NCBI GenBank assembly: GCA_016125385.1
Contig: WGLV01000021.1
Span: 31,429-95,428, forward strand
From: a bacterium
GTDB taxonomy: Bacteria > Hinthialibacterota > Hinthialibacteria > Hinthialibacterales > Hinthialibacteraceae
DNA length: 64,000 nt
Direction: 5' to 3'
Below are positions 250 through 55,147 of the stretch, in pieces. A program made the position numbers and the translations under genes. Under the pieces are notes generated by a model. That model was not told the DNA's origin. It searched no databases and was given only the letters and a program-made list of their open reading frames with translations. Numbering within the stretch: position 1 is the first letter of the stretch; every line of letters begins with the position of its first letter.

Positions 250-1083
250 ATGGCTGACGATGAAAACAAGAAATCCGCTGAAGTCCGTTTCGCATTCGGT
301 TCGAATTGGACCGAATTTTTACGGAAACTGAACGACGAACGTATTCAAGAAGCGGAAAAATCGATTCAAGACAAACTCAAACTCGAATCGCTCGCCGGGC
401 TTATATTCGTCGACGCAGGCTCTGGGAGCGGCTTGTTTTCTCTGGCGGCCAAACGGCTGGGCGCCGCAGTGCATTCTTTCGATTACGATATCCAGTCCGT
501 CGAATGCACCCGGGAATTGAAACGCCGTTTTTTCGCTGACGACGAACAATGGATCATCCAGCAGGGATCCGTTCTTGATTCCGACTTTCTGGCTTCGCTG
601 CCCCGCGCCGACGTGGTGTATTCATGGGGCGTGCTGCATCATACGGGCGCCATGTGGCAAGCTCTGGAAAACGTCACCGCTCTGGTCAAAGACGATGGGT
701 TTCTTTTTATTTCCATTTACAACGACCAGGGGTTGGAGAGCCGATTCTGGACGTGGATCAAAAAGCGATACAACCAGTCGCCCTTTTTTATCCGATGGGC
801 GTTTCTAGGCATCGCCTGGATACGATACTGGTTTCCCGCGCTGATTCACGATTTGAGACGCGGCCGGCTGTTTCCATCCTGGTATGAGTATACAAAAGAA
901 CGCGGCATGAGCCCGTGGCACGATCTGGTCGACTGGGTTGGAGGATATCCTTTTGAAGTCGCGATGCCCCACGAGATCGTCAATTTTTATATTGAGCGGG
1001 GTTTCAACCTGATACATCTGCACACGCTTTGCGGCGGTTCCGGGTGCAACGAATACGTATTCAAAAAAACGCCCGCGCGATAG
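250..1083 (+). CDS. Class I SAM-dependent methyltransferase
   Basis: 277-aa ORF with a glycine-rich SAM-binding motif I (VDAGSGSGLFSLAAKRLGA) near the N-terminus. It lies convergent to the downstream glycosyltransferase cluster. Confidence 0.7.
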   Translation: MADDENKKSAEVRFAFGSNWTEFLRKLNDERIQEAEKSIQDKLKLESLAGLIFVDAGSGSGLFSLAAKRLGAAVHSFDYDIQSVECTRELKRRFFADDEQWIIQQGSVLDSDFLASLPRADVVYSWGVLHHTGAMWQALENVTALVKDDGFLFISIYNDQGLESRFWTWIKKRYNQSPFFIRWAFLGIAWIRYWFPALIHDLRRGRLFPSWYEYTKERGMSPWHDLVDWVGGYPFEVAMPHEIVNFYIERGFNLIHLHTLCGGSGCNEYVFKKTPAR

Positions 1084-1096
1084 AGCACTGGCGAAA

Positions 1097-2200
1097 TTAC
1101 TCCGCCGGAGCAGCGCAAGCCAGCAGCTCATCCCATCGTTGCATGATGATATCGGGATGGAGCCGCCGCATCGAACGGCGCGCTTCAGCGCCAAGCCGTT
1201 CACGAAGCGGCGCGTCGCTCATCAACCGTTCCATCGCTTCCGCAAGCGCTTTCACATCGCCCGATGTAATCAGAAGACCATTTACGCCATGCTCGATAAT
1301 ATCGCCGGGGCCGCTGGGCGCGTCAAAACTCACCGCCGCGCACCCGCAGGCCATCGCTTCACACAACGCGTTGGGAAACCCCTCATAACGCGAACTCAAT
1401 GCGAAGATGGACGAAGTCATATACAAATCCAGCGGGTCCGCATCGCGTCCAGCAAACTCAGCGCGCCCACGCAACAACAGCCGGTCGCGCCGCGCTTCCA
1501 GCTCGGTTCGCAATGATCCCTCTCCCACGATCACCAGGTTCCAATCAGGGTGCTTTTCCGCCACCGAAGCGAAGGCTTCAAGCAGAAAATCGAATCCTTT
1601 TTGAGTTTCGAGCCGTCCCACCGCGGCGATCTTCATCTCTCGAACTCGCGGGCTGGATGCCCCTTCCGTAAGAAACCGAGGCGTCAGCGGATTGGGAATC
1701 ACGTAAATTCCGCAGGGAATCATGCGGTCAAAATACGCTTTCGCATTTTGAGTCTGGACCACCAGCGCATGACAAAAGCGGTATGAAAAATCGCGGATCA
1801 TCTTCCAGAAGTTTGAAATCGAAGCCGATCGGGGATCAATACGTTCGGAAACGATCACCGGGGCGTTCAAGCCTCTCGCGGCCCAGATCGTCACAACGTT
1901 CACTTGATCCATAAAACTTACGATGACATCCGGCGCCAGTGAACGTAATTCGTCACGGACTTTCCGTATGCGCCTCCAGTTATTCATCAGTCCGGCGATT
2001 GGATTCGAAGATGGTTTCAAAAGATTCAAAGGCGTCCAACTGATGTTTTCGTGCAACAGGTAAAAAGGCGCCGTTGAACCATCGTCAAGGGTTAGAATGG
2101 TCACATCCCGGCCACGTTCGGCCCAATAGTTCGCCATCAAACTCATGACGCGTTCCGCTCCACCGCTGGTCAACGATGAGATCACCATACAGATTTTCAT
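1097..2200 (-). CDS. Glycosyltransferase family 4 (GT-B fold)
   Basis: 367-aa ORF. It has an N-terminal SGGAERV motif and a C-terminal EGFPNALCEAMACG motif, as in GT4 (RfaG/WbuB-like) enzymes. Confidence 0.8.
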   Translation of the reverse strand: MKICMVISSLTSGGAERVMSLMANYWAERGRDVTILTLDDGSTAPFYLLHENISWTPLNLLKPSSNPIAGLMNNWRRIRKVRDELRSLAPDVIVSFMDQVNVVTIWAARGLNAPVIVSERIDPRSASISNFWKMIRDFSYRFCHALVVQTQNAKAYFDRMIPCGIYVIPNPLTPRFLTEGASSPRVREMKIAAVGRLETQKGFDFLLEAFASVAEKHPDWNLVIVGEGSLRTELEARRDRLLLRGRAEFAGRDADPLDLYMTSSIFALSSRYEGFPNALCEAMACGCAAVSFDAPSGPGDIIEHGVNGLLITSGDVKALAEAMERLMSDAPLRERLGAEARRSMRRLHPDIIMQRWDELLACAAPAE

Positions 2201-2202
2201 GG

Positions 2203-3330
2203 TTATGATTTCGATCTCGAGCGACCAGCGGCCGCTTCAAGTAACACAGCTTCCCACTGATCGAATACTCCGTCAGGATGAAAACGCTCCAACACATCAA
2301 CCGCGCGGGAACCTAAAGTGGAGCGGAGATCCGGAGAATTCATTAATTCAACCAGCGATTCGCGAAACGTTTCCCAATCCCCATCAGGAACCAGAATCCC
2401 ATCGATCCGATCTCGGATAATGTTTCGCGGGCCGGAGGGGCAATCCATGCTGACAGACGGCATTCCAAGCGACATCGCTTCCAGCAGGCTATTAGGAAAC
2501 CCCTCAAACTCGGAGGTCAGGGTGAAAATATCGGCTTTTTTCAAATATGGGAACGGCGTTTTTTTTTCGCCCAGCAGTAGTACTCTGTCCTGTATGCGCA
2601 ACTCGTCAATCTGGTTTTCAAGCGAGGATCGTTGAGGGCCCTCTCCGATGACGATCAATCTCCAATCAGGGAAATCAGAGGCGACGTCCTTGAAGACTGA
2701 GATCAGCCGATCGAATCGTTTTTCAGCGGACAAACGTCCCATAGCCACAATGTAACGATACTCGCCGGTCATTTCTTTGCATGGTTCAACTTCATCGACA
2801 TGGAGAGGGAACACAGGATTAGGAATGACGGCGACGTTCCGATGGTACCCTTTCGACTCGATCCAATTTTTCAGATCCGGCGTTTGCACGACAAGCTTGC
2901 GCGCTCGAGGATAATACCAGCGGCAGAGCATCTTCCAGCGCCAGTTCATTGGAAGCAGCCGGATATCGGTGCGTTCAGCCACCACGACCGGCGTGCTTTT
3001 CGATCGCAACGCGCTCATGACACGGACGCCTATTGGAGAGGTAAAACCTACCACGGCATCAGGCCGCGTTTGAAGAATCGACTCCCGCATGGAGCGAGAA
3101 CGACGTTCCTGTCCAGCGATGTCATACCAGGCGCAATCGGCGAAAGCCTCCGGCTCGAACATCTCGCGCCGCACTCCGGAAGGGACTGTATAAAAATCTT
3201 CGTCGATGTTGGAATGCGGCGTTATCAAAATGATTTCGTGCTTTCGCTTATACAAACCTTCCGCCAGCTGGATCACGGCGCGTTCCGCTCCCCCGCAAAC
3301 CAGATGGCTGGAAACAAGCGTTATTCTCAT
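2203..3330 (-). CDS. Glycosyltransferase family 4
   Basis: 375-aa ORF with CGGAERAV at the N-terminus and EGFPNSLLEAMSLG. It is tightly packed, with a 2-nt gap, to the downstream GT4 gene. Confidence 0.8.
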   Translation of the reverse strand: MRITLVSSHLVCGGAERAVIQLAEGLYKRKHEIILITPHSNIDEDFYTVPSGVRREMFEPEAFADCAWYDIAGQERRSRSMRESILQTRPDAVVGFTSPIGVRVMSALRSKSTPVVVAERTDIRLLPMNWRWKMLCRWYYPRARKLVVQTPDLKNWIESKGYHRNVAVIPNPVFPLHVDEVEPCKEMTGEYRYIVAMGRLSAEKRFDRLISVFKDVASDFPDWRLIVIGEGPQRSSLENQIDELRIQDRVLLLGEKKTPFPYLKKADIFTLTSEFEGFPNSLLEAMSLGMPSVSMDCPSGPRNIIRDRIDGILVPDGDWETFRESLVELMNSPDLRSTLGSRAVDVLERFHPDGVFDQWEAVLLEAAAGRSRSKS

Positions 3331-3340
3331 CAGCGCGCTC

Positions 3341-5242
3341 TCAATACGTTCCAGCGGAGCCGCCGTGCGTCAACCAGTCCTGCAACATCAGAATGGACCA
3401 TATCCGGTTAGAGAAATCGACCTGACCGCTTTTATGCCGCATCCAAAGCGATCGGACGGCGGCAGGAGAAAAGACGCCGGTTTGCTTCAGCGCGGATTCG
3501 GACAATAACTCTTCCGTCCAATCCAACAGGGCTGTCCTGATCCACTCTCCCACAGGGACGCCGAACCCCTGTTTGGGGCGTTCGAACATCGAGGCGGGGA
3601 CATAACGAGCCAACAGCCGCTTCAGTATTTTTTTTCCGGAGGCGCCATCATATTTCAGACTCAGTGGCAGAGTCCACGCCCATTCCACGATACGATGATC
3701 GAGCAGGGGTATCCGCGTTTCCAAACTGCACGACATCGCCGCACGATCCACTTTGACAAGAATATCGCCGGGCAAATACTGGAGCGAATCGCATGCCATG
3801 GCGAAGTGAACAGGCCCTTCCGCTTCAATCGAATTCCAATCGTCTTCGATGCCGGGAGGCGAGTCGAGTAAAGCATCTGACGCATAGAACTCATTGAACT
3901 GTCCGTGATACAGCGACTGATATGAATTAGAGGCGTATAAATGTTTTCGCCATCGAAATCGCTCGCTCCACCCGGCGAGATTCAGCACGTTGGCGCAACC
4001 CTCCCCGCATTTGAACGCGAAAGAAGCGGCGCGCGCCAGAGGCAGATATCGTTTACGCGCATTCCAGGCTCGTTCAAGAACTCGATAACGTGAATAGCCT
4101 CCAAACAACTCATCGCCGCCGTCACCCGAAAGCGCCACGGTTACTTTCTGTTTCGCCAGCCTGCATACAAGAACGGTGGGTACCGCGCTGCTATCGGCGA
4201 AGGGCTCGTCATAAATCGACGCGAGTTCGGGAATCACGTTCCAGGCTTCAGATGGAGAAACGATCAGTTCGGTGTGATCGGTGTGCAGATGGGACGCAAC
4301 CTCACGGGCGTAGTGCGACTCATCAAACGATTTTTCATGAAACCCGATCGAAAATGTTTTGACGTTAGAGCCGCCCAGCGATTGCATCAATGCCGTCACG
4401 CTGGATGAATCGATCCCGCCGGAGAGAAACGCGCCGACAGGCACATCCGCCTCTCGTTGTCCGCGAACCGCGTCCAACAAGAGCGTTTCCAACTCAGCCG
4501 CGGCATCGTCCTCACCGCCCCGAAAAGGCGTTTCCCGCCCCGCGCGGACAGCTTCAGCAAACGACCAGTATGGGCGGAACTCGCTTGTTCCATCCGGCTG
4601 AAGAACCGCAATGACGCCGGGAGTCAGTTTTTGAATCGATCGGTAAATGGAATACGGCGCGGGAATATACCCTCTGCGCATGAACAGGCGAATCGCCCGG
4701 CGATCGATTTCAAAATTCAGGCCCGGAACCGCGCGAAGCGATTTCAGCTCGCTCGCGGCCCACCAGGCGCCTTGATGCCAGCCATAGTAGAGCGGCTTTT
4801 CGCCCATCCGGTCACGAACGAGGTAAAGAACTTTGTTGACCCGGTCCCATGCCGCGAAGGCGAACATTCCAACGCATTTCCGGACCGTTGCGTCAACGCC
4901 ATGAAGCGCGACGCTTTCAAGCAGGACTTCCGTATCGGAGTTGGAATGGAATGCAACGCCCTTCTCCTCCAATTCACGGCGCAGGTCTCGCCAGTTATAT
5001 ACCTCGCCGTTATAGACCATCACCCAGCGTCCATCCCGCGAATGCATCGGCTGATGGCCGGCGGGCGACAGATCGAAAATAGACAATCGGCGATGGCCCA
5101 GCGCAATTCCTTTTTCAGAATCGCACCAGACGCCAGCGTCGTCAGGTCCACGATGGCTCATTTTTTCAAGCGCGCCATCAATCCAATCAGCTGGATTCAG
5201 CCATTCGGATTTTGGCGTCAACATGGCGAAAATACCACACAT
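3341..5242 (-). CDS. asnB: Asparagine synthase (glutamine-hydrolysing) family amidotransferase, AsnB-like (sugar-amidating type likely)
   Basis: The ORF track runs to 5389. The conserved class-II glutamine amidotransferase N-terminus MCGIFAML begins at residue 50 (ATG at 5242), one nucleotide after the stop of the upstream DegT gene. The PP-loop SGGIDSS is present. Confidence 0.8.
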   Translation of the reverse strand: MCGIFAMLTPKSEWLNPADWIDGALEKMSHRGPDDAGVWCDSEKGIALGHRRLSIFDLSPAGHQPMHSRDGRWVMVYNGEVYNWRDLRRELEEKGVAFHSNSDTEVLLESVALHGVDATVRKCVGMFAFAAWDRVNKVLYLVRDRMGEKPLYYGWHQGAWWAASELKSLRAVPGLNFEIDRRAIRLFMRRGYIPAPYSIYRSIQKLTPGVIAVLQPDGTSEFRPYWSFAEAVRAGRETPFRGGEDDAAAELETLLLDAVRGQREADVPVGAFLSGGIDSSSVTALMQSLGGSNVKTFSIGFHEKSFDESHYAREVASHLHTDHTELIVSPSEAWNVIPELASIYDEPFADSSAVPTVLVCRLAKQKVTVALSGDGGDELFGGYSRYRVLERAWNARKRYLPLARAASFAFKCGEGCANVLNLAGWSERFRWRKHLYASNSYQSLYHGQFNEFYASDALLDSPPGIEDDWNSIEAEGPVHFAMACDSLQYLPGDILVKVDRAAMSCSLETRIPLLDHRIVEWAWTLPLSLKYDGASGKKILKRLLARYVPASMFERPKQGFGVPVGEWIRTALLDWTEELLSESALKQTGVFSPAAVRSLWMRHKSGQVDFSNRIWSILMLQDWLTHGGSAGTY

Positions 5243-6377: not shown

Positions 6378-6847
6378 GATTAAGGTTCGTTATTGAAGGA
6401 GGTTATACGAATCAGAAGCGGTTCGGGCAGGCTTCGCCCCTGTCAGCGGTTCCGAAGCAGGGAAGCGCATGCAGGATTATGCAATATTCAAATTATGAAT
6501 AAAGAATAATGCCGCAAGAACCGCTTTGTCAATACTTTTTTCAGGGGCAGGGCGATTTTTTCATACAAATACCATCACCCGAAGCCGCTGCCGAAGCCAA
6601 ATGGCCCTTCACCTCTGTGGAATATTGTCAAAACTCACTGCGCCACCACCACATCTTGTATCATGATCCATGATTCCACACTAGCGGCACGGCGTTAATC
6701 GTTCGAAATGAAGTAGCAATCCGTTCTGGAAAAAATCGGTACGGTTTTTCTCGTTGACGTTGATCGGGAATCCAGTATATTGCAGAACCATCTCTGAATT
6801 CTCATCATGTGGCGCTATCACCTGCTACCAAAAGGCGAAAACGAGCG
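6378..6847. promoter_or_regulatory. 470-bp divergent intergenic region between the DegT operon (minus strand) and xth (plus strand)
   Basis: It is AT-richer than the flanking genes. Both flanking genes start here in opposite directions, so it must carry two promoters. I could not map exact -35/-10 elements with confidence. Confidence 0.3.
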
Positions 6848-7600
6848 ATGAAACTGATTTCATGGAACGTAAACGGGATTCGGGCGGCGGTAAAGAAAGG
6901 CTTGCTTGATTTCGTGGCGGAAGCCGATCCCGACGTACTCTGCCTGCAGGAGACCCGCGCCATGCCCGATCAGGTCGAGCTGCCCTGGCCTCACTATCAC
7001 GCCTTCTGGAACCCGGCTGAAAAGAAAGGCTACTCGGGCGTGGCGATCTTCAGCAAAACCGAACCGCTGAAGGTCACTTATGGAATCAACCTGCCCGAAC
7101 ACGACAACGAAGGGCGGGTCGTCACCGCCGAGTATGACGATTTTTACCTGGTGAACGTCTATACCCCCAACTCACAACGCGGACTCACACGTCTGGAGTA
7201 TCGCACCCGGGAATGGGAGGGCGTGTTTCTGAAATACCTGAAGAAGCTGGAAAAAAAGAAGCCGGTGGTGTTTTGCGGAGACCTCAACGTGGCGCACACC
7301 GAGATCGATCTCGCCAACCCCAAAAGCAACGAGCGCAACGCGGGATTCACTATTGAAGAACGGCAATGCTTCGACAAGGTGCTCGCCGCCGGATTCATCG
7401 ATACGTTTCGTGAGTTTACCAAAGAAGGCGGTCATTACACCTGGTGGAGCAACTTCGGCCGGGCGAGAGAAAAGAACGTAGGGTGGCGCATCGATTATTT
7501 CTGTATCTCGCCCGCGCTGCGCCCGCGGCTGAAAGAATCGATTATTCTTCCTCACGTGATGGGGTCGGATCACTGTCCGATTCAGATTGTGCTGGATTAG
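6848..7600 (+). CDS. xth: Exodeoxyribonuclease III (AP endonuclease)
   Basis: MKLISWNVNGIRAA is the canonical Xth/APE1 N-terminus. An internal ATG at 6848 is preferred over the ORF-track start at 6809. The sequence ends with the SDHCPI motif. Confidence 0.85.
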   Translation: MKLISWNVNGIRAAVKKGLLDFVAEADPDVLCLQETRAMPDQVELPWPHYHAFWNPAEKKGYSGVAIFSKTEPLKVTYGINLPEHDNEGRVVTAEYDDFYLVNVYTPNSQRGLTRLEYRTREWEGVFLKYLKKLEKKKPVVFCGDLNVAHTEIDLANPKSNERNAGFTIEERQCFDKVLAAGFIDTFREFTKEGGHYTWWSNFGRAREKNVGWRIDYFCISPALRPRLKESIILPHVMGSDHCPIQIVLD

Positions 7601-8426
7601 CCGCCACGTATTGGTCAAGAAAGCGATCGATGCCTTCAAGGTATCGATCTTCGCTCAGCAGGAACCCTTCGTTGTGCAGCCCGGCGATTTCGAGAAATTC
7701 TTTCGGCGGGTTGGCGGCGGCGAAGATCTCGCGCCCGTGATGAAACGGGATCAACTCGTCATCCGGGCTGTGAATCACCAGCATGGGCGCTCGGACCCGG
7801 CTGATTTTGGCGAGATTGTCATAATGGATCGCCGACACCCATTTCACCGGAAGCATGGGATAAATCTCCCGCCCAAGCCCGGGGATTGATGTGAATCCAC
7901 TCTCAAATATCAGCGCATCGGGCCGTTGAGCCGACGCAACGTCAACCGCCGTCGCCGCGCCGAGCGAGCGGCCGAACACCACCAGCGGCAGCCCGGGCGT
8001 CTTCCCCTTAAGCCATTCATACGCGGCGGCCGCATCAAGGTACGTGCCTTTCTCGCTCAGCCGGCCCCGGCTCACTCCATAGCCGCGATAATCAAAAATG
8101 AACACGTTGAGCGCCAGCGAGTGAAACTGGCGCAGCGCTTCAAGACGATAACTGATGTTGCCCGCGTTGCCGTGACAGAAAAGCAGGGAGGCGCGCGCCT
8201 CGGGATGGGGCAGATACCACGCCGAAAGCGTTGCTCCATCAGCGGCGTGAAGCGTAACGATTTCGTACTCGAGGCCGATTTGAGACGGGTCGGCGATCAG
8301 ATCCCGCCGGGGAACCCAGACGTTCATGCGCTCAAACTGGCGCAACGCGAAAAACGCCGCCACACCGAGCGCCATGATGAACAGCAGGGTATAAAGCATC
8401 ATTCGTACAAACCGGCTCGAAGGCAT
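7542..8426 (-). CDS. Alpha/beta hydrolase (S9/S33-like), membrane anchored
   Basis: An N-terminal TM helix (MMLYTLLFIMALGVAAFFAL) is followed by an HGNAGN oxyanion region and a GRSLGAA nucleophile elbow (GxSxG). The 3' end overlaps xth convergently by about 59 nt. Confidence 0.7.
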   Translation of the reverse strand: MPSSRFVRMMLYTLLFIMALGVAAFFALRQFERMNVWVPRRDLIADPSQIGLEYEIVTLHAADGATLSAWYLPHPEARASLLFCHGNAGNISYRLEALRQFHSLALNVFIFDYRGYGVSRGRLSEKGTYLDAAAAYEWLKGKTPGLPLVVFGRSLGAATAVDVASAQRPDALIFESGFTSIPGLGREIYPMLPVKWVSAIHYDNLAKISRVRAPMLVIHSPDDELIPFHHGREIFAAANPPKEFLEIAGLHNEGFLLSEDRYLEGIDRFLDQYVAANPAQSESDSDPTPSREEE

Positions 8427-8475: not shown

Positions 8476-8573
<98 letters not shown>

Positions 8574-8651
8574 CTGATCCTGTTGTCAAAGAATACGCGA
8601 ATCAAATGCTTCGTGTTGAAACCCTCGCCGTCCGGTTTCGAGTCTTGAGAA

Positions 8652-8739
8652 CGGTGGGGGTGGGATTCGAACCCACGGTACGGTTCCCCGCACTCCGGTT
8701 TTCAAGACCGGCGCCTTAAACCAACTCGACCACCCCACC
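8652..8739 (-). tRNA. tRNA-Ser (anticodon UGA)
   Basis: Hand-folded from the sequence. The acceptor is GGTGGGG/CCCCACC, the T-arm is GTGGG-TTCGAAT-CCCAC and the anticodon loop is CTTGAAA. A long variable arm is present. No CCA is encoded. Confidence 0.8.
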
Positions 8740-9069
8740 AATGAGGTTCGTGAACCGGCATGGGTTTCAGCCTACGTTTATATCTCAGAACCGGCGTTCA
8801 TTCAAGGAATTCGACCGGCGCGAACCGGGTTTTCCGGCTGGATTCGCCGTTTTCACACGGAAACAGGCAAAGAGCCGGATTCAGAATTCAATTTCATTGT
8901 ACCATCGAAGAAGGTCATATCACGGTTACCGTCAATTCGCTTCAACCGTGTTTGTACAGAGGTTTTTTCACCGCTGGGATCGATGGCTCAGAAACGGCGT
9001 GGATGGTTAGTCATTTCATGGGATTCACTATATAATTAAAGAGCCTATATCAGAGACGAGAGAAGTACG

Positions 9070-10557
9070 TTGAAAGCCCGATTTATATTCACATCCCTGT
9101 TTTTCATCCTTGGCCCGATCAGTTGGGCTGGCGGCCCGCTCAAGGTCTATAACGACAAACCCGTCACATGGAATTCAAGCGATTATCCAATTCAATGCAA
9201 CATTGACATCGGCGGGCTGGGTTCATTTTCAAACGAAGACGCCCGCGCGCTGATCGTGAACGCTTTCGACGTCTGGCAGTCGGTGGACGGAACGGCGATC
9301 CGTTTTGAAGCCGGCCCCAACCTGCCTGACGACGTCAACGGGCAGAATTTCAATCTATATCTGGATGGGCGGATCGAGGGGCTGAATCCTATCATTTTCG
9401 ATTCAGACGGTTCAATCACCGACGCGATATTCGGACAGAACGCCAAGGATGACATTCTTGGGTTCGCCAGCATCACCCGCAGCAACCAGAACCGCATTCT
9501 CTCATCGCAGGCGATTTTTAACGGCGTTTACATCACCGAAAATCAGATCACTCCCCAGAGTTTTCACCCGACGATTCTGCATGAACTCGGTCACTGGATC
9601 GGACTCGATCACGCCCAGCTGTTCAGGCATCTCGCCACGGACGGCGTGGGCTGGAACGACTCGTGGGTTCCTATCATGTTCCCCACCACCACCGACGATG
9701 AAAGCGTTCGGCAAAGCCTGACCGATGACGACCAGCATGCCATCACCGTGCTATACCCCGCGCCGGGCGTGCTGGAGTCGAGAGCGGCCATCACCGGGCA
9801 TATCCTGCAATCGGCCAAGAACAAACCGGGTATGAACGTGATCGCGCGGCGGGTGGGCTCCGTGACCGACCAGATCTACAGCACGGTTTCGGGAACATAC
9901 AAAAACAACGGCGGCGATTTTGAATTCAGGGGATTGCCGCCGGGCGACTACCAGATTTACATCGAACCCATCGATCCGCTGTACCGGGGCAGTTCATCGG
10001 TCGGCCGATACGCCACCTCGATCAACAGCCCTTCGTTTCAAGATCCGCCGCCATCGCAGTTTTATCACGACCGCGACGATGGACTGGCGCGCAGTTCGTG
10101 GGAAACGATTCACGCCGGCGCGGGTGAAACAGTGGAGCACATCAACTTTCTGCTCGATAACGACGTGGCGCTGTTTGATGAAAACAACACGCAACTGATC
10201 GGGATCCCCGACGAACAGACCGGGGGGCTGCCGGGCGAGAGCATCTCTCAGTTTCAGTTCATCTTTGGAATGACCGGCGCCGAATACGGCGTCAAGATTC
10301 GCGTCACTGGAACTCCCGGCGTGCAGTACGACCTGCTGGTCGATATGGAACGCCGGCCAGGCCCCTTCGCGCCCGCGGCCGCGTCATGCCGGAACGGCGT
10401 CGCGGAATTCATTCTGAACGAAGACAGCGAGCCGCCTCTTCTGGGAGCGCGGTATTTCGTCGCCGTGCGGAATAATTCCAGGCAAGACCTGTCATACCGG
10501 ATCGAGACTCAATCCATTACGGCGTCAGCCGGCCCCGGCTATGAACTCTACCGCTAG
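9070..10557 (+). CDS. Secreted matrixin-like (metzincin, M10-like) zinc metalloprotease with a carboxypeptidase-regulatory-like beta-sandwich domain
   Basis: It has a signal peptide. HELGHWIGLDH matches HExxHxxGxxH, and a downstream Met-turn is present (VPIMFP). The GHILQS...GMNVIARRVGS...GDYQIYIE segment resembles a CarboxypepD_reg domain. It has lower GC (about 52%) than its neighbours. Confidence 0.7.
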   Translation: MKARFIFTSLFFILGPISWAGGPLKVYNDKPVTWNSSDYPIQCNIDIGGLGSFSNEDARALIVNAFDVWQSVDGTAIRFEAGPNLPDDVNGQNFNLYLDGRIEGLNPIIFDSDGSITDAIFGQNAKDDILGFASITRSNQNRILSSQAIFNGVYITENQITPQSFHPTILHELGHWIGLDHAQLFRHLATDGVGWNDSWVPIMFPTTTDDESVRQSLTDDDQHAITVLYPAPGVLESRAAITGHILQSAKNKPGMNVIARRVGSVTDQIYSTVSGTYKNNGGDFEFRGLPPGDYQIYIEPIDPLYRGSSSVGRYATSINSPSFQDPPPSQFYHDRDDGLARSSWETIHAGAGETVEHINFLLDNDVALFDENNTQLIGIPDEQTGGLPGESISQFQFIFGMTGAEYGVKIRVTGTPGVQYDLLVDMERRPGPFAPAAASCRNGVAEFILNEDSEPPLLGARYFVAVRNNSRQDLSYRIETQSITASAGPGYELYR

Positions 10558-10605
10558 GTTCAGCCCTGTTTCACGGCGAGTGTTGACCGCCAGACCGGCG
10601 GCGAT

Positions 10606-12510
10606 ATGAAAAAACGGCTGTTGTTGATCTGTTACGCGCTACTCGCGGCGATCGTTTCGGCGCCGGTTTACGCGGGCGGGCCGCTGGTCGTATATAATGG
10701 GCAGGCCGCCGTCTGGCCCAGCAGCCGCCTGCCCGCCGAATACGTGCTCGACACCGGTCCGCTGGGGCCTTTTTCAAACTCCAAAGCCAACAGCATGGTG
10801 GAGACCGCCTTCAACCAGTGGCAATCAGTCGACGGCGCGTTGATGAGTTTTCACCGGTCTTCCCGGTATTCATTTCTGAGCGACGTCAACTCATCCAACT
10901 ATCAAAGTTCGCTCAACTCGCTTCCTTCGTATATCAACCCGGTTATCTACGATGACGACGGCGAGATCATTGACCTCATTTTTGGTAACAACGCGAAGAA
11001 CAACGTGCTGGGCGGCTCAAGCCCGCAGACCTTCGGTTCGCAGATCACCCGCGTCATCACGATTTTCAACGGATACTTCTTCAAGCGCTACAACATCTCC
11101 GAGCAGGACGTGATGGTCACGCTGATGCACGAGTTCGGCCATTTCGCCGGGCTCGATCACTCGCAGCATTCACGCGCATTCGTGTTCAACAACATCCCCG
11201 AAGACGACGCCATTTTTTCGGCGATGTACCCGACGTCGTCGGACTCGGCCGAGTTCAGGCCGCTGCTCACTCTCGACGACCGCACCGCCATATCGAATCT
11301 ATACCCCACCAGCAACCATACCGCGTCAACGGGGCGCGTAACGGGTTCGGTCAAACGTGGCAGCACGCAGGTCCCCGGAGTAAACGTCGTATTAACCGGC
11401 GTGAGCGATCCGTTCAACACGCTCCTGACCACGGTAACGGGCACGTATGACGCCAATCAGGGGACGTTTGAATTCGAGGGCGTTCCGCCGGGCGACTACA
11501 GGCTCAGCATCGAGGCGATCGACCCGATCTTTTATGGAGCGTCGAGCGTGGGGCAATACGCATCAACAAGCAGCGGCCGCTCGTTCAAGACACCGGTGAA
11601 AACCGAATATTACAACGCCAGCGACGCCGCCAGCGAAGGACGCAGCCTGAACAAGGTCATCACCGTCAAGAAGAATCAGACGCTTTCTAACATCAACCTC
11701 AATCCAAGCAGCGGCAACGCGACCGACGACGAGCGCTTCTCAGCCCTGTTGCCGGTGGGCGGCCTGCTGAAAGCCTGGGCGGCGTCGGGTTTCGTCAATC
11801 CCGATATTCCCGGCGAGTTTCTGCTTGAACCGCAAGGCGATGAAAACCGGCTTGAGGTGCGGATCGATTTCGAGCGTTCGGTGAATTATTACATCGAAGC
11901 CAAACAGGAAACCAGCTCAAATTCATTCAGCACGAAAGAGTTTCGCGGAACGGGACAAAGCGTGTCAATCGAGTTAGGTCCAGGAGGCGACTTCGGGCTG
12001 GACCGCGATCGATATTTTTTCAACGTGGTGTCGTTTGAAGGCGAGGACCTGCCCTTCACCATCACAGTCGACGATCATCAGCAGCCCACGCCCACGCCAA
12101 CCGATACGCCGACGCCCGCGCCGACGGCGACGTTGACTCCAACCCGAACGCCCACCCCCACACGCACTCCGACGCCGACGAAGACGCCTACGCCGACCAG
12201 AACCCCCACGCCGACCCGGACGCCCACCGTCACCCCGGCGCCCACCGCAACGAAAACGCCCACGCCCGCTCCCAGCGCGACGCCCTACCCGATCTCGCTG
12301 GCCGACCTGAACGGAGACGGGACGCTCGACAAGTTCGATCTGTTCGCTTTTTCTTCAGATTGGGATATGACGGGCGCCGCACGCTTTTCAGGAGCGCTGG
12401 TGGACCAGAACGGCAAGCTCGACCGGGAGGGATTATTGCAATGGCTGGCGCGGCGGCGCGCCTGGCTCGACAGCCAGCAAAACTCGGCGCCCTCGGCCAA
12501 CGGCCAATAA
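10606..12510 (+). CDS. Secreted matrixin-like zinc metalloprotease paralog with a Pro/Thr linker and a C-terminal dockerin-like module
   Basis: It has a signal peptide. [12 protein letters not shown] plus SAMYPTS is a near-perfect MMP signature and Met-turn. It carries the same CarboxypepD_reg-like block as the upstream paralog. The [12 protein letters not shown] linker is followed by [18 protein letters not shown], a dockerin/EF-hand-like Ca-binding repeat. Confidence 0.7.
12075..12290. repeat. Imperfect tandem coding repeat (ACGCCSACS units) that encodes the Thr/Pro linker
   Basis: Directly visible as reiterated acgcccacgcc / acgccgac units. The antisense ORF GVGVGV at 12078..12263 is an artefact of this repeat. 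Confidence 0.6.
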
Positions 12511-36253: not shown

Positions 36254-37996
36254 CTATTTTCCATCGCCCCAGTGTTGAATGAGGATGAGCAGGTCTTTCG
36301 CGTCGACGACGCCGTCGCCGTTGAGGTCGGGATCGCCCGCGACAGGCGTGGGCCGCATCGGCGTGGGAGTGACTTGAGGCGTGGGCGTGACCGTCGGGTC
36401 GGGAGGAAACAGAAACGGCGTCGCGGTGGGCGCGGGCGCGCCCGGCGTGGCGGTGGGCAGCGGCTGAAGCAGCGACGCCGTTACGATGACGTTATTCTTA
36501 GAATCGATCACCACCAACCCGACGCGGCCATCGCTGAAAAAACGCCCCGGCGCGGCGAAGACAGGGTTCTCGACGCTGAAGACGGTTTGCGTCCGCCCGC
36601 CGGTGGGGCCATCGGTGCGCTGAAAGGCGCGCACGCCGCCCGCCGCGGGAAAGACGAAATCGCTGAGGCCGTCGGCGTTGAGGTCGTATGCACGTAGAGG
36701 AAAGCCCACCGATCCCGCCGGCAGCCGCGCTTCATCGGTCGAGACGCTTCCATCGTCTTCGAGGCGGACGCGGCTGAAATACAGCGTGGGGTCGACCTCG
36801 CCGGTGGGAGAGAACGCGGCCAGCTCAACCCGAGCCGGGTCGATGGGGCGCGCGGCGAAGGCGCGTTGCAGCGTTGGATCGGTCAGCGTCAGTTTGATCG
36901 CGTTTAAGAAGTTGAGATCGGGGCTGCTGAACAGAATGTACGGATCGACGTTGGATGACGTACCGCCGCGCGAGCGGGTAATGAACAACTCGTCGCGGCC
37001 GTCACCGTCGAGATCGCCCTTCGCGAGGAAACGCCGCCCAAGGCCGATCAGGTCGCCCTCCAGCTTGAAGGTTCCATCGCCGACGCCGGTGAAGATTTTG
37101 GGGATGCCGCCCACGATCAGATCGAGCGCGCCGTCATCATTCACGTCAACCAGCGTAAGCGCGTCGAGCGCGGTGGTCAGCGATACGTCGGCCTGAAAGC
37201 CGGACGCGAAACCGCCCGCGTCATTGGCAAGAAACACGGTCAGGTGAACGGACGCCGACCCGGAGGCCTGCGACGCCGCCACGAAGTCAACCAGGTCATC
37301 ACCGTTGACGTCGCCCGTCGCGACCCGCGAGGGCGCGTCGATCTGCATGTTCAGCGGGATCGAGATCAGGCCCGAGCCGGACGAAGTGAAGAGGTCGACG
37401 CGGTTAGAGGCTTTGTAGAGCAGAAACAGGTCGTCGAGCCCGTCGCCGTTCATGTCGGCGGTTTCGACCCCCGTAACCGCCGCGCCCACGGTAAAGCGGC
37501 TTTGCTCGGCGAACAGCTCGGCGGGCAATGGAACCGGCGTGGGCGGCGGCGTCTGAAACGCCGAGGCGGGTTTTACCTTTAATCCCCAGCCGATCAATGT
37601 GCCGGTCGCGCCCTCGACGAGGTCGAGCACGCGCAGTTTCCATTCGCCCATCGGGCTTCGATTGAGAAAACGCGAGAGCGGTTCGGCGGGGGCGTCGAGC
37701 GTATCGTAAACGGGGTGAAAGGGCGCGTCATCGGACGGAGTCCGGTTGTGCAGAATAATGCTCTCGCCGCCGGGATGAACCAGCGAGACGATCAGCTGTT
37801 CAACGGCGGGGTGATCGATCTCGAACGAGACTTGCAGTTCTTCGAGCGGTTCGCCGCCGGGGACGTAAATCGAATACGCCGCGCCCGTGACGGCGTCGTT
37901 ATCGGGAATGGGCAGATCGGCGCGCACTTCGGCGACGGCGTACGGCGTTTCGGCGGTCTGGGCGCGCGCGAGCATGGGCGCCGCGAGGCAGACCAT
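36254..37996 (-). CDS. Secreted FG-GAP/VCBS-repeat protein with a Pro/Thr linker and a C-terminal dockerin-like module
   Basis: There are repeated DxNGDGxxD motifs (DMNGDGLDD, DVNGDDLVD, DLDGDGRDE, DLNADGLSD). A PT-rich linker is followed by DLNGDGVVDAKDLLILIQHWG at the C-terminus. The start is assigned to the ATG at 37996, just after the uvrB stop. The upstream part of the ORF track overlaps uvrB and is not believed. Confidence 0.6.
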   Translation of the reverse strand: MVCLAAPMLARAQTAETPYAVAEVRADLPIPDNDAVTGAAYSIYVPGGEPLEELQVSFEIDHPAVEQLIVSLVHPGGESIILHNRTPSDDAPFHPVYDTLDAPAEPLSRFLNRSPMGEWKLRVLDLVEGATGTLIGWGLKVKPASAFQTPPPTPVPLPAELFAEQSRFTVGAAVTGVETADMNGDGLDDLFLLYKASNRVDLFTSSGSGLISIPLNMQIDAPSRVATGDVNGDDLVDFVAASQASGSASVHLTVFLANDAGGFASGFQADVSLTTALDALTLVDVNDDGALDLIVGGIPKIFTGVGDGTFKLEGDLIGLGRRFLAKGDLDGDGRDELFITRSRGGTSSNVDPYILFSSPDLNFLNAIKLTLTDPTLQRAFAARPIDPARVELAAFSPTGEVDPTLYFSRVRLEDDGSVSTDEARLPAGSVGFPLRAYDLNADGLSDFVFPAAGGVRAFQRTDGPTGGRTQTVFSVENPVFAAPGRFFSDGRVGLVVIDSKNNVIVTASLLQPLPTATPGAPAPTATPFLFPPDPTVTPTPQVTPTPMRPTPVAGDPDLNGDGVVDAKDLLILIQHWGDGK

Positions 37997-38024
37997 CAGC
38001 GCCAGGGCGAGGACAGCCCAGCGG

Positions 38025-40142
38025 TCAGCGGCCCGGGCGGCGCTTGCGCGGGGCGGGACGGGGCGCGCGTTGCGGCGCGCCGCGATCGGGAGCCTCCATG
38101 CCGGCTTGTTCGAGTTCAGCGATTTTGTCACGGTATACCGCCGCTTTTTCGAATTCGAGATTTTTGGCCGCTTCCACCATGCGCCGTTTGAGTTCGGCGA
38201 CGGCGTCTTTGCTGCTGCGGGTTTTGACGATGACCGATTCGGAGATTTCGTACAGCAACTCCTCCGTCTCGCGCCGTTTAACCGAGCGCGCCTCGAGAAT
38301 CGAGCGCACCTTCTTCTGGATGGTTTTCGGAATGATTCCATGCTTTTCATTGTAGTCAAGCTGAATCCGGCGGCGGCGCTCCATCTCGGCGATGGCGCGG
38401 TCCATCGATTTGGTCGGCTTGTCGGCGTACATCACCACCTCGCCGGCGACGTTGCGGGCGGCGCGCCCGCAGGTCTGAATCAGCGAACGCTCGTCGCGCA
38501 GAAAGCCTTCGCGGTCAGCGTCGAGAATGGCCACTAGAGAAACCTCGGGCAGATCGAGCCCCTCGCGCAGCAGGTTGACGCCGACGATGACGTCGAACTC
38601 GCCGCCGCGCAGCCCCTCGAGTATCTCGGCGCGCTCAAGGGTATCGACCTGAAAGTGAAGCCAGCGCACCTTGATGCCCAGGTCCTGCATATAGCCGCTC
38701 AGGTCTTCGGCCATGCGCTTGGTGAGCGTAGTGACCAGCACGCGCTCGTTGCGCGCGATGCGCTCGCGCACGCGGGCGATGAGATCGTCGACCTGACCGG
38801 TGGCGGGCCGCACGGTGATCTTGGGGTCGACCAGACCGGTGGGACGGATGATCTGTTCGGCGATATTCTCGCTGTTTTTGACCTCGATCTCGGCGGGCGT
38901 GGCCGAGACGAAGATCGACTGGTTGATCGAGTTCCAGAACTCTTCAAAGGTGAGCGGGCGGTTATCGAGCGCGGAGGGCAGGCGGAAGCCGTAATCGACC
39001 AGCGTCTGTTTGCGGCTGCGGTCGCCGCCCGACATGCCGCGAATCTGGGGCAGCATGATGTGCGACTCGTCGACGATGAGCAGAAAGTCGTCGGGGAAAT
39101 AATCGATCAGCGTGCTGGGCGGCATGCCGGGGTCGCGGCCGTCGAGATGGCGCGAATAATTTTCAATGCCCTGGCAGAAGCCGGTCATCTCCAGCATTTC
39201 GAGATCGTAGGAGGTGCGCTGTTCGAGCCGTTGCGCCTCGACCAGCCTGCCCTCGCCGCGCAATTGCTGGAGGCGCTCGCGCAGCTCTTCGCGGATGGTT
39301 CCCACCGCGCGTTGCAGGCGCTCGGGCGCGGTGACGTAATGGCGCGCGGGGTAGATGGTGATGCGCTGATGTTCGCCCACCACTTCGCCGGTCAGCGGAT
39401 CCATGGCGAGGATGCGGTCGACGTCGTCGCCCCACATTTCGATGCGGTACGGGTGTTCGCCGTAACCGGGGAAGATTTCGATCACATCGCCGCGCACCCG
39501 CATGGTTCCGTGGTGAAAGTCCATGTCGTTGCGGTGATATTGCAGATCGACCAGGCGGCGCAGCAGGCGCTGGCGCGGGATACTGTCGCCCACCGCGATG
39601 GGGCAGATCATCTCGCGGTATTCTTCAGGCGAACCCAGACCGTAGATGCACGACACCGAGGCGACGATGATCACGTCGCGGCGCTCCATCAGGTTGGTGG
39701 TGGCCTCCAGCCGCAGGCGCTCGATCTCGTCGTTAATGGTGACTTCCTTCTCGATAAAGACGTCTTTGGAAGGGACGTAGGCCTCGGGCTGATAGAAGTC
39801 GTAATACGATACAAAGTAACCCACGGCGTTATTAGGGAAGTATTCCTTGAACTCGCTGTATAGCTGGGCGGCCAGCACCTTGTTATGGGACATGATGAGC
39901 GTGGGCTTGTTAACCCGCGCGATCACGTTGGCCATGGTGAAGGTCTTTCCGCTGCCGGTGACGCCCACCAGCGTCTGGTATTTCTTTTTTCCGAGCACGC
40001 CCTCGGCGAGCGACTCGATGGCGGCGGGCTGGTCGCCGGTCGGCTGGTACTCCGACGCCAGTTCGAAGGGGATCTCTTTGACGCCGTGTTCGTCGCGCCG
40101 CGCCGCACTCTCGGTAATCGCCTGGATTTTTTCAACTCGCAT
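38025..40142 (-). CDS. uvrB: Excinuclease ABC subunit B
   Basis: The protein is 705 aa. The Walker A motif is GVTGSGKT. Helicase motifs and a C-terminal UVR domain ([16 protein letters not shown]) are present. Confidence 0.95.
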
Positions 40143-49503: not shown

Positions 49504-52500
49504 TTACCGGGCGCGGGCTTCACGCGCGGGGATGCGAATCTCCACATCGCGCATGACCGGCGAGACGAAATCGGCGCCGGTCAGGCCGAACTGAGCCTGA
49601 AACTGGAGATAGTCGCCCTGGCCGCTGATGCGCATTTCACCCTCGGCGCCCTCGGTTTTTTTGGCCCAGGGGAAGTACTGAAGCGAGCCATCAGGCTGTC
49701 TCATCACCCAGCGCCCCCAGAGTTGAAGCGAGGCCGTCTCGGGGATGTCGGCGTCCCACGTGATGACGGCCGGTTTTCCGCCGGAGCCTTCCGCCGGATA
49801 AAGCGGCGAGATGTAGAGCGCGCTGACGGGCGCGCCCGGCGCGCGGATGAAGCGCACATCGGACACGCTGGTTGAATATGGCCCCGGCACGGCTTTGAAA
49901 TCGATGGTGAAATAATCGCTGAGCAGCCGCTGGGCGCCAAGCGAATAAAAACCATCATCGCCGCCGTCTTTGACGTGTTCGATGATTTTGTACTCTTGAT
50001 CGTTGGCGGTTTTCACCGCGATTTTCGCCGATTCGCCTTTGTCATACGCCGAGCTGTACAGCCTGACGGAGGTGTTATACACCCCCTGCGGCGTGGGCAG
50101 GCTGGCCTGAAGGACGGTATCTTTGCCCGTGGGGGTGACGAACAGATTGAAGCGGGTGAACCACATCCATTTGTCGCTGGACGAACTTAACCCAAAAAGG
50201 TCCTGATTGGCGACGAAGGCTGGAGCGACGCGTTGGCGAAACTCCATCACGCCGGGAATCAGCACGAGCCCCTCGAGTTTTTCGTCAAAGGTCAGGAACT
50301 CCATCTCACCGGCGGTGAAGTGGTCCTGATCGGTCACCGAGTAGACCCGTTCACGATTGACGATGGGCGCGGCGGGCATCTGCAGTTTGACGTCGAGCCG
50401 TTTGACCAGCGAGGCGTTATTGTTCTCGCCCGATTCTTCATCCTTTTCAGCGATCAGGTCGTATTTATCCACCTCAATCGAAAGCGTGTTTTTGCTGGAG
50501 ACCAGCGGCGTTTCAAATTCCGTTTCAGCAACGACGTTTCGCGGCACGCGGTCGAAGAAATGGATCAGTTCATTCTGATTCAACATCAGCGAAAGCCGGA
50601 CATAGGTCGCGTCTGAATCGCCCATGTTGCGAGTGCGGGCGTGAATCAGAAGAGGATCGCCCCAGATGGGAATCGGTTTCGGATCGCCCAGTTCCATCGA
50701 ATGATCGAGCCAGGCGTCGACCTGAAGATCGGGCAAACCGGCCAGATTCACCGAAGTGGTGATTCGATTATTGGTCTCGTCGAGCTCTTTGATTCCATCA
50801 TTGGGGTCGACGACGATGGAAATCTGGTTCGCGCCCAATCCGTCGTACGCGTCCGGATCCCAGACCAGTTCGATCTCTTTGCGCTCGCCGGGTTCCAGCC
50901 GGTCGATCACCGAACGCTGCGACTTATGAAACGGGAGCAGGCGTTTTTTCTCAGCCGGATCGCCGAGAAACGCTTCGACGCGCACGTCGTCAGCCGACCC
51001 GTCGCCGACGTTATAAACGTTGGTTTTGAAATAGACCGTATGCCCCACCTCGGGGCGATCGGGCTTAATCACAAGATCGCCCTCGGCCAACGCCAGGTCG
51101 GGCTTGCCCAGAACCTCGAACGCCATCGGGAACTCTTTCGCGTAGCCTCCCTCCGCCGTCACATTCAAAACGTAACTCGCGGTTCCGGCTTCTTCAGGCA
51201 ACTGGACGATAAAGTCAAGCGACTTGTCGACGTTGGGCTCCAGCGTAACGCTCTGTACCGCATCAGCCGCGCCGGGGCCGGTCAACCATGCGTTCAGGCT
51301 GGCGGGTCCGGAATCGCCGGTGTTGACGAACGGCAGACGCATGCGAACCGATGAGCCTTCGATCAGGTCATTCGTGTTAAAACTCACCGCGCCGGTTAAC
51401 GGAGTAACGGGATAATCGGGCTGATCAAGCATGACGCGCAGCGAATCTTTACCCCGGACCGATTTCAACCCGAGGTATGGATCGTCTTCCATCCTGACGA
51501 AAGCAAAGCGAGAGCCTTCGGGGATTTCTCCGCGCCATTCCACGTCAACGGTCGATTCGGCGGGGATATCGGCGATGGAGACGTACTGCGTCTCGCCGGA
51601 ATCGATGCGCAGTTTGCATTCGGCCTGATGAACGGGGAACCGCGTCGGGTTGGCGGCCTGAAATACAACGACGGTTTCACTTCCGTCACGGCTGGCCGCA
51701 CCGCCCGAGATTTCAATTTGCGGTTCATACAGCGGAAGCGTCACCGCGCCCCACGCGTCGGCGCGCCGCGATTCGTTCCAGGCGTACACGCGGATCGCGG
51801 CGGTGGAAGCGTTCAGGTTCGACGCCTGACCGGTGAAGGTATGACGAATGGGCAGCGAATCGAACACGAACGGTTTGCTCTCGTACACGGTTTCGTGACC
51901 GTCCGACATCGAGACGATCGCCATACCGGTCGTGAACGTGATGTCGTCCGCGCTGACGGCGAACTGCTGCTCTTCGTCCGCATAGTAATAAGGTTGATCG
52001 ACGCTGACATTGAGATGCTCTTCGGGTTGATTGATTTCGACCGCCGGATCGCCGAAGAGAATGTACTGATCGACCAGGTCGGTATTGGTGTAGGTCTGCA
52101 TGAACTCGGTTTTGCAGAAAGTAGTGGCTTCGCCGAGCCTCGTGACGCCGTCTTCAAACAGCAGGCGCATGAGGGTATGCGAGAGAATCATGTGCTGGTC
52201 GGTGGTTCCGCCGCCGCTGGGTCCCCACACCGCGATGCCGCCGCGATCGGGATAGCGCATCAGTTCTTCAGACAGGCAGACGTGAAACGGCGGACGATTG
52301 TAATTGAGCAACCCGGTCAGGCACGACCAGCTGAGAATAAAGGGAAAACGATCGTTGGGTTGCAGCTCGAGGACGTTGCTGGTGGGGCGCTCGGTTCCGT
52401 AGAAGATGCGCTCATGCGACCACAACTGGTTTCCGCCGTGGCCAATGTATTGCATCAGCAGCATGCCCTGATTCATGTGATCGAGAATGGAGAGGGTACA

Positions 52501-54936: not shown

Positions 54937-55147
54937 TGTTTCGCTTCCAGTCTCCCCTGATTGGTCTTGATTGAGGATTTCAACGTTCTTATTCCGGCGT
55001 GGAACGCCGCGGCGCGTTGAAAACCGCTGGTTGCAGGGTATCAAATCGATTCAAAGATCCGCGAGAGGCCTTCTCCTCCCACAACTGACGTCGCCCTCCC
55101 TTTCGTGAATTCACCGGAGATCGCGGCCCGGTCAGGCATCGTCCCGG

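Follow-up and report, generated by a model that had tools for sequence, protein, structure and literature searches.

An old tandem pair of M10-like metzincin genes next to two tRNA-Ser genes in a Hinthialibacter-like bacterium

Described metzincins and the catalytic domains of the pair

Matrixins (M10A, PF00413), including karilysin of Tannerella forsythia, are secreted metzincins with the zinc-binding motif HExxHxxGxxH, Ser after the third His, a Met-turn of the M-[YF]-P type and C-terminal accessory domains; their catalytic domain of about 165 residues follows a prodomain with a cysteine (PRCGxPD) or aspartate switch. In serralysins (M10B) the third His is followed by Pro, the Met-turn is SxMSY, in which the Tyr binds zinc, and the C-terminus forms an RTX beta-roll; these enzymes leave the cell by type I secretion without a signal peptide. 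The pappalysin/cytophagalysin family (M43) carries the metzincin motif in multi-domain secreted bacterial enzymes with a cysteine-switch pro-segment. We analysed a stretch of 64,000 nucleotides (nt) from an uncultured Hinthialibacter-like bacterium (contig WGLV01000021.1 of assembly GCA_016125385.1, positions 31,429 to 95,428; hereafter the window) and found in it two tandem genes, encoding protease A and protease B, which form an old, vertically inherited pair and not a recent low-GC (guanine plus cytosine) island. We file both proteins as M10-like metzincins acting like matrix metalloproteinases (MMPs), not as matrixins in the strict sense. A first-pass annotation, made from the letters alone, had described tandem matrixin-like proteases in a low-GC islet; the protease identity holds in this M10-like form, supported by motifs, Pfam, structure models and Foldseek, and the islet does not.

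Both genes are open reading frame (ORF) calls. Protease A (9070-10557, plus strand, 495 residues) starts with TTG, and protease B (10606-12510, plus strand, 634 residues) starts with ATG, 48 nt past the end of A. The two proteins are 33 % identical across 491 residues (E 7e-79), so that the co-oriented tandem ORFs are paralogous, as had been claimed. A deposited protein identical to A is a hypothetical protein of a metagenome-assembled genome (MAG) labelled 'bacterium', and the closest relatives of A (52-55 % identity) include Candidatus Hinthialibacter antarcticus. Co-transcription of A and B from a single promoter is likely because no terminator-like site was found between them.

The six-frame scan detected HExxHxxGxxH exactly twice in the window, at nt 9580 and nt 11128. 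The first site is HELGHWIGLDH of A (9580-9612, plus strand; H171, E172, H175, H181) and the second is the motif of B (11128-11163, plus strand; H175, E176, H179, H185, then S186). The Met-turns are PIMFP in A (9670-9684, plus strand), with M203 and P205 invariant among the twelve closest sequences, and SAMYP in B (11218-11232, plus strand), with M207 and P209 nearly invariant in the alignment; the scan thus recovered both signatures and both turns (PIMFP, AMYP) noted at first pass, which go well past anything that chance would give. Across a 120-member alignment H171, E172, G174 and H175 are invariant, H181 and the turn proline P205 nearly so, and the Met of the turn is invariant or nearly so in 100-120 homologues, MFP or MYP being the dominant Met-turn pattern (68 family members). 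The H-E-x-x-H-x-x-G-x-x-H motif would ligate the catalytic zinc, with the Glu as general base and the Met-turn beneath the site.

That one or both proteins are catalytically dead, with only a binding or structural role, is very improbable. A has Ala in place of the usual Ser or Thr after the third His and falls just under the Pfam M10 cut-off, which would suit a dead enzyme, but Ala is found at this position in 10 of 98 family members (Ser in 67, as in B, and Thr in 19), and neither A nor B nor any orthologue has lost a zinc ligand, the catalytic Glu, the Gly or the Met-turn.

Pfam Peptidase_M10 (cut-off 24) matched B with 30.3 bits, only residues 166-198 being aligned, and A with 23.6 bits over residues 53-229. 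Long A-type orthologues gave 30.0 and 24.1 bits with the same model, and one of these alignments spans 19-158 of the 159 model positions. Among the three Pfam domains suggested at first pass, Peptidase_M10 passed its cut-off in B over this short stretch only, A stayed just under it, CarboxypepD_reg was sub-threshold and Dockerin_1 had no match in the window copy. The NCBIfam search gave nothing above cut-offs, with motif-level scores only (for instance, MXAN_2677/2678 at 16.7 and 20.7 bits versus 250), and phmmer of B against PDB sequences returned low-complexity matches to the Pro/Thr-rich linker and none to the catalytic domain. Among PDB sequences, a profile of the family alignment matched serralysins (E 4e-7), MMP-7 (E 1.5e-5) and karilysin (E 2e-4) besides other MMPs, and the serralysin match extends from the active-site helix past the Met-turn as far as the last helix.

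The AlphaFold2 (AF2) model of A has a predicted local distance difference test score (pLDDT) of 91.6 and a predicted template-modelling score (pTM) of 0.91; the model of B has pLDDT 81.8 overall and above 90 for residues 25-490. Foldseek against the PDB aligned the N-terminal domains with MMP-1, 3, 7, 9, 11, 12 and 13 and karilysin at probability 1.0, with template-modelling scores (TMt) of 0.60-0.71 and 14-20 % identity. TMt was 0.60-0.70 for A with MMP catalytic domains and 0.66-0.71 for B with karilysin, B also matching MMP-3, 9 and 11. A and B thus have the extended zinc motif, the Met-turn and the catalytic-domain fold by which the metzincin clan MA(M) is recognized.

Compared with matrixins and karilysin, the pair shares the zinc motif, the M-[YF]-P turn, the catalytic fold, secretion and C-terminal accessory domains; the Ser that follows the third His is present in B and in most family members, A having Ala. 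The catalytic domain of A and B is longer (about 210 residues), however, no hemopexin domain is present and identity is low, as given above. Serralysins provided the best profile matches to PDB sequences; A and B differ from them by Ala or Ser after the third His, the MFP/MYP turn and a signal peptide, and no GGxGxD repeats or Pfam RTX matches were found in either protein. The M43 family is connected by name: the NCBI label of a Ca. Hinthialibacter orthologue is 'M43 family zinc metalloprotease', and Peptidase_M43 (PF05572, cut-off 23) gave 21.3 bits for A and 20.0 bits for B, below the cut-off and in the motif region only. A and B differ from M43 enzymes by the absence of a cysteine-switch pro-segment, and no M43 chain occurred among the 60 of 122 profile matches listed or among the top 50 structural matches.

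A and B belong to a large, modular, uncharacterised M10-like family of secreted hydrolases of environmental bacteria. The profile search of 1.84 billion cluster representatives detected 1,667 sequences at E <= 1e-30 and 8,681 at E <= 1e-10, and 275 loci of GTDB species representatives encode relatives when the 12-sequence alignment is the query; the genome-contig search with protein A alone gave no match. The best 78 of the 275 loci come nearly all from MAGs, labelled Omnitrophota, Thermodesulfobacteriota, Bacteroidota, Ignavibacteria, Acidobacteriota and Proteobacteria, and the C-terminal modules of the family vary (type IX secretion system (T9SS) sorting domains, PPC, CARDB). The family, found almost only in uncultured bacteria, lacks the prodomain and the structural-zinc site that define animal MMPs and karilysin, and the biochemistry of one member could reveal how such enzymes are kept in check. 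Annotation could also be improved for proteins now called 'hypothetical' or 'M43 family'.

Export, accessory domains and the proposed function

Both N-termini look Sec-like by eye, in agreement with the signal peptides claimed earlier. The putative signal peptide of A (residues 1-20) is MKARFIFTSLFFILGPISWA, followed by GGPL (...SWA/GGPL), and that of B (residues 1-23) ends in ...VYA/GGPL. In A, the catalytic domain (residues 21-232) is followed by a CarboxypepD_reg-like beta-sandwich (239-362) and a PPC/collagen-binding-like beta-sandwich (370-485). B has the same order, with a catalytic domain (24-236), a beta-sandwich (243-365) and a PPC-like beta-sandwich (374-490), and continues into a Pro/Thr-rich (PT) linker and a dockerin-like tail. 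We rejected the idea that B is a lipoprotein, with Cys9 as the critical residue: this Cys is too near the N-terminus, is preceded by LLI and not by a lipobox, and is not conserved.

In 132 of 192 family members a GGPL-like motif is present; its median position is 25, and HExxH follows some 159 residues later. The catalytic domain would begin directly at the predicted cleavage site, and the orthologues of A and B have no conserved Cys (several have no Cys at all). There is also no conserved His column upstream of HExxH, where A and B each have one non-conserved His. Because of these three features, there is no sign of a prodomain or of a cysteine (PRCGxPD) or aspartate switch, which suggests that no zymogen form exists, and the structural-zinc site of MMPs (three His and one Asp, in the S-loop) cannot exist in A and B.

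These features invite a more specific reading: the pair would be a two-enzyme proteolytic unit of a prodomain-less MMP-like clade, with B anchored to the surface by a non-cellulosomal single-loop tail and with activity switched on when signal-peptide removal exposes GGPL. If true, the logic of latency and tethering would be unlike that of all characterised matrixins; we consider this reading quite unlikely.

CarboxypepD_reg (PF13620, cut-off 32.3) gave sub-threshold scores of 20.7 and 24.0 bits, and AF2 models a beta-sandwich confidently at its position in both proteins; several homologues carry precomputed PF13620 matches. Of the CarboxypepD_reg-like beta-sandwich reported at first pass, the sandwich therefore stands, and 'CarboxypepD_reg-like' serves as a working name with family membership unproven. 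The last beta-sandwich superposes on accessory domains of clostridial-type collagenases: that of A on 5sv5 (TMt 0.77), a PPC domain from a Bacillus collagenase, and that of B on 1nqj (TMt 0.65), the collagen-binding domain of ColG. Pfam PPC matched neither A nor B, and more distant homologues have Pfam PPC (PF04151) at the C-terminus. The resemblance to the collagenases concerns these domains, since the catalytic domain of A and B is M10-like and not M9.

The PT linker of B (12079-12285, plus strand; residues 492-560) is predicted to be disordered (pLDDT 33-44). It has become longer in the window lineage, with 69 residues versus 12-45 in four Hinthialibacter-like orthologues. The dockerin-like C-terminal module (12295-12507, plus strand), a 71-residue tail recognized by alignment and profile matches, has a canonical first calcium loop (DxNxDGxxxxxD) with a helix, and its second segment is degenerate, without ligands at loop positions 5 and 12. 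Pfam Dockerin_1 (PF00404) matched four of the five orthologous tails (best E 4.7e-5), the window copy giving only sub-threshold EF-hand matches. With a profile of the five tails the best PDB matches were solved dockerins (E 1.4e-4 to 8e-3), aligned over the first calcium loop only. 'Dockerin-like' is a fair name for the tail, membership in the dockerins being unproven.

Dockerin-bearing peptidases are known in Ruminococcus flavefaciens (PMC2930009). Like those of the cellulosome-producing Firmicutes, B combines a peptidase, a linker and a C-terminal DxNxDGxxxxxD loop with a helix; it differs from them in its second repeat, since of the two segments (each about 22 residues in type I dockerins) the first alone is canonical. 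The tail of B in the window also fails to reach Pfam Dockerin_1, and the host is presumably diderm and non-cellulosomal. To our knowledge, no cohesin is known in the Hinthialibacter-like lineage.

Another protein of the window, encoded at 36254-38359 (minus strand), looks secreted and combines FG-GAP repeats with a P-domain of the proprotein-convertase type; at its C-terminus a Pro/Thr linker leads into one dockerin-like segment, DLNGDGVVDAKDLLILIQHWG. Since B and this protein share the PT linker and the calcium-loop tail, the combination is a recurring C-terminal module of the genome.

We consider it probable that A and B are Sec-exported zinc endopeptidases made from one transcript, A free and B tethered, that serve protein degradation. 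The two-gene unit would be transcribed from probably one promoter; the Sec signal peptide would export each protein, and the mature chain would begin at GGPL and lead straight into the catalytic domain. For the two beta-sandwich domains, binding to substrate or to the cell surface is the most likely task. A has nothing further after them and is probably released, and B is probably held by its flexible linker and calcium-loop module to a partner located on the cell surface or on a polymer. Together the enzymes would break down proteins, outside the cell or in the periplasm, as a likely source of nutrition for a polymer-degrading Hinthialibacter-like bacterium. Ca. Hinthialibacter antarcticus was described as a polysaccharide degrader with abundant proteases and peptidases (PMC9324843).

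Several points weigh against this proposal. In a presumably diderm cell, a Sec signal peptide delivers the protein to the periplasm only, so that an extracellular role would also involve passage through the outer membrane. The M10 sequence support is marginal, with A 0.4 bits below the cut-off and the match of B spanning 33 residues, and the M10-like family has no experimentally characterised member. The dockerin call is weak, as it relies on one calcium loop and gains no support from the AF2 model of B, in which the tail has low confidence, and no cohesin was found among the ORFs scanned in the 64-kb window, which is part of the genome only. The promoter sites described below are consensus matches only.

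Alternatively, A and B could be active metzincins with a specific non-nutritional job, for instance in maturing or shedding surface or secreted proteins of the bacterium itself, in remodelling an extracellular matrix or in attacking other cells. The pair is strictly kept across many lineages with unlike C-termini, suggesting divided roles; the tail of B suggests a fixed location, and the similar linker and tail of the 36254-38359 protein give a hint of a common assembly on the surface. Type IV pilin-like (N_methyl) genes are also located near the pair in two loci of deeper lineages (L011, L013) and near a single B-like gene in a third locus (L012). However, no candidate substrate gene is conserved beside the pair, whose flanks are housekeeping, and the very large, taxonomically broad family with its varied C-termini (T9SS, PPC, CARDB) looks like one of general secreted hydrolases. 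We regard a specific job as unlikely and prefer general protein degradation.

A further ORF of 1846 residues, at 49504-55044 (minus strand), has Peptidase_C25 (gingipain-like, E 4.9e-76) and CARDB matches, and its product is probably a second large extracellular protease encoded in the window.

Conservation, composition and age of the locus

We detected the gene order Exo_endo_phos (xth), alpha/beta-hydrolase, tRNA-Ser(gct), tRNA-Ser(tga), A, B in the window and in four independent Hinthialibacter-like genomes (loci L001, L002, L004/L005 and L006), which with the window make five. In a further locus, L018, the tRNA-Ser pair is again followed by A and B, on this side of the locus. In the neighbour-joining tree the five A copies form one clade and the five B copies another, and metagenomic sequences branch beside each. 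This phylogeny, which had been proposed at first pass as a way to date the duplication, places it before the split of all five genomes.

A-B tandems without the tRNA genes are present in deeper lineages (L011, L013, L014, L016, L019-L022, L025). The B proteins scanned in these tandems have about 615-730 residues, with a PT linker in 7 of the 8 and a dockerin-like loop in 6 of 8 by strict motif scan; the tails of the L013 and L011 copies were read directly from the protein. Since A and B clades each hold all five genomes, and tandems and B tails recur in these deeper lineages, the duplication and the tail of B are ancestral, and the duplication is older than the split of these genomes. The first-pass annotation had B gaining a linker and a dockerin-like C-terminus; the linker is there, as is a tail of the more doubtful kind described above, but the tail is found across the B clade and is not a gain of the window copy.

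A-type genes of the deeper lineages (L011, L013, L014, L016, L018-L022, L025) encode 920-1010 residues, for example at L013:3058-5964 and L011:5189-7954. In the two copies compared, they are 40-41 % identical to A of the window and closer to it than B of the window is. No Pfam match was found in the C-terminal extension of about 450 residues (two copies scanned); its absence from A of the window and the Ca. Hinthialibacter clade is a derived loss.

Measured between the window and the Hinthialibacter-like genomes, A (54-55 % identity) and B (49-50 %) have diverged about as much as the neighbouring hydrolase (56-58 %), and xth stands at 73-75 %. The pair therefore does not evolve notably fast, which speaks against the rapidly evolving locus suggested earlier.

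The composition of the pair is not foreign. Block 8741-12510 has 57.4 % GC versus 58.5 % for the window, not about 52 % against about 64 % as had been stated, and lies at the 30th percentile among equal-sized windows. A has 57.1 % and B 59.2 % GC; compared with 41 putative window genes, GC z-scores are -0.38 (A) and +0.06 (B), and those for GC at third codon positions (GC3) are +0.04 and +0.57. In tetranucleotide usage, 9070-12510 departs from the window average by a distance that ranks at the 55th percentile, and only the 329-nt spacer upstream of A is AT-richer than the background. In the four relatives the pair has 50-56 % GC in loci of 50-52 %.

We give next to no credence to the idea that the block beside the tRNA genes was gained by horizontal transfer as an islet or is evolving rapidly. 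The pair does adjoin two tRNA-Ser genes, its spacer is AT-richer (47 % GC), an acyl-CoA ligase forms its right flank in the window where most relatives have an unknown protein and ABC transporters, and the tRNA region varies, with a GIY-YIG ORF beside tRNA-Ser(tga) in an alternative assembly of the same organism. Against this stand the GC, GC3 and tetranucleotide usage typical of the window, a left flank, tRNA pair and A-B shared with four other genomes (tRNA pair and A-B with a fifth), A-B tandems without tRNAs in still deeper lineages, and a duplication that predates the genome splits, with divergence like that of the neighbouring hydrolase. We saw no integrase, transposase or flanking direct repeat adjoining the pair. 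Integrative elements normally insert at tRNA 3' ends; the protease genes are found at the opposite, promoter-proximal 5' side of these tRNAs, and the GIY-YIG variation lies on the 3' side. A tRNA-associated genomic island is thus not indicated by composition, by an adjoining mobility gene or by patchy occurrence. The first-pass annotation had itself held that synteny and typical GC in relatives would speak against an islet, and comparison of the locus, which it had proposed, gave exactly these. What looked like a plausible tRNA-linked low-GC protease islet is instead a compositionally normal, deeply conserved pair, and the correction may be of value in its own right.

The right flank of the window is a convergent acyl-CoA ligase gene, apparently also in L012, while most relatives have an unknown protein there, followed by ABC transporters in three of four; this difference is an ordinary rearrangement. 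L012 (6001-9526) has a B-like gene split into pieces of 432 and 225 residues and a fragmented downstream AMP-binding gene, which suggests long-read frameshift errors or pseudogenes. The order of B and the AMP-binding gene there is the same as on the right flank of the window.

tRNA genes, spacer and promoter-like blocks

ARAGORN and Rfam confirmed the two adjoining tRNA-Ser genes of the first-pass annotation, both on the minus strand: tRNA-Ser(gct) at 8484-8571 (Rfam tRNA 59.2 bits) and tRNA-Ser(tga) at 8651-8740 (60.6 bits). Both are at the same place in L001, L002, L004, L006 and L018. Rfam matches to 'Plastid-psbl-rps4' were rejected as sub-threshold and antisense to the tRNAs.

The spacer between the tRNA genes and A (8741-9069, 329 nt) has 47.1 % GC and had been described as an AT-rich leader of 330 nt. 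Its length and AT-richness are as described, but, given two conserved blocks, its best reading is a region of divergent promoters that leaves A a short 5' untranslated region (UTR). The first block (8777-8805, minus strand; TTGAAT, 17 nt, TATAAA) points toward the tRNA-Ser genes and includes the invariant plus-strand 12-mer TTCAAGGAATTC. It is invariant or nearly so in five genomes despite only about 55 % protein identity, and is a candidate tRNA-directed promoter; the consensus promoter scan did not list it, as the final base of its -10 hexamer is not T. The second site (9008-9036, plus strand; TAGTCA, 17 nt, TATAAT) ends 34 nt before the start codon of A, matches the consensus at 10 of 12 positions and is the putative promoter of the protease pair. 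It lies within a block GGATGGT...TATA kept directly upstream of A in all relatives, where it reads TGGTCA, 17 nt, TATACT.

The TTG start of A is kept in all five Hinthialibacter-like genomes, B always starting with ATG, and may tune the translation of A. Gene A starts at 9070 in the window, at 10001 in L001, L002 and L006, and at about 10028 in L004, where the ATG called for A lies inside the promoter block and is probably wrong.

Between the two conserved blocks the window has an insert of its own (8813-9000, 188 nt, no strand assigned), so that their distance is about 200 nt in the window versus about 30 nt in L001, L002, L004 and L006. No repeat copy of the insert was found elsewhere in the window or in the compared loci, and the Rfam scan of the spacer, insert included, gave no match besides the tRNAs. 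The insert has fold z-scores of -0.61 (plus strand) and -2.41 (minus strand, 4 of 200 shuffles), which indicates no convincing structure on the plus strand and a mild one at most on the minus strand. Small ORFs at 8741-9010 and 8760-9035 were rejected as genes, as they fall mostly within this non-conserved insert.

The alternative assembly mentioned above, L008 (Logan SRR10063241 contig), is 100 % identical to window 8652-11557 over its positions 437-3342 and differs from the window past the 3' end of tRNA-Ser(tga) (L008:1-436). That part holds the GIY-YIG ORF (78 residues, Pfam E 1.5e-12), flanked by a direct repeat resembling the tRNA 3' end (GTAGGGTGGCGGTGGG...GGGATTCGAACCC), and the contig begins at this tRNA-like repeat. 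The tRNA-Ser(tga) of L008 encodes CCA, and the window copy does not. Two origins come into question for the difference: a variant between strains or a small mobile element, located 3' of the tRNA, or a join made in assembly across tRNA-like repeats.

On the left flank of the window, the xth-like gene (6809-7600, plus strand) and the alpha/beta-hydrolase gene (7542-8426, minus strand) are convergent as called, with a 59-nt 3' overlap (7542-7600); in relatives the two genes lie clear of each other.

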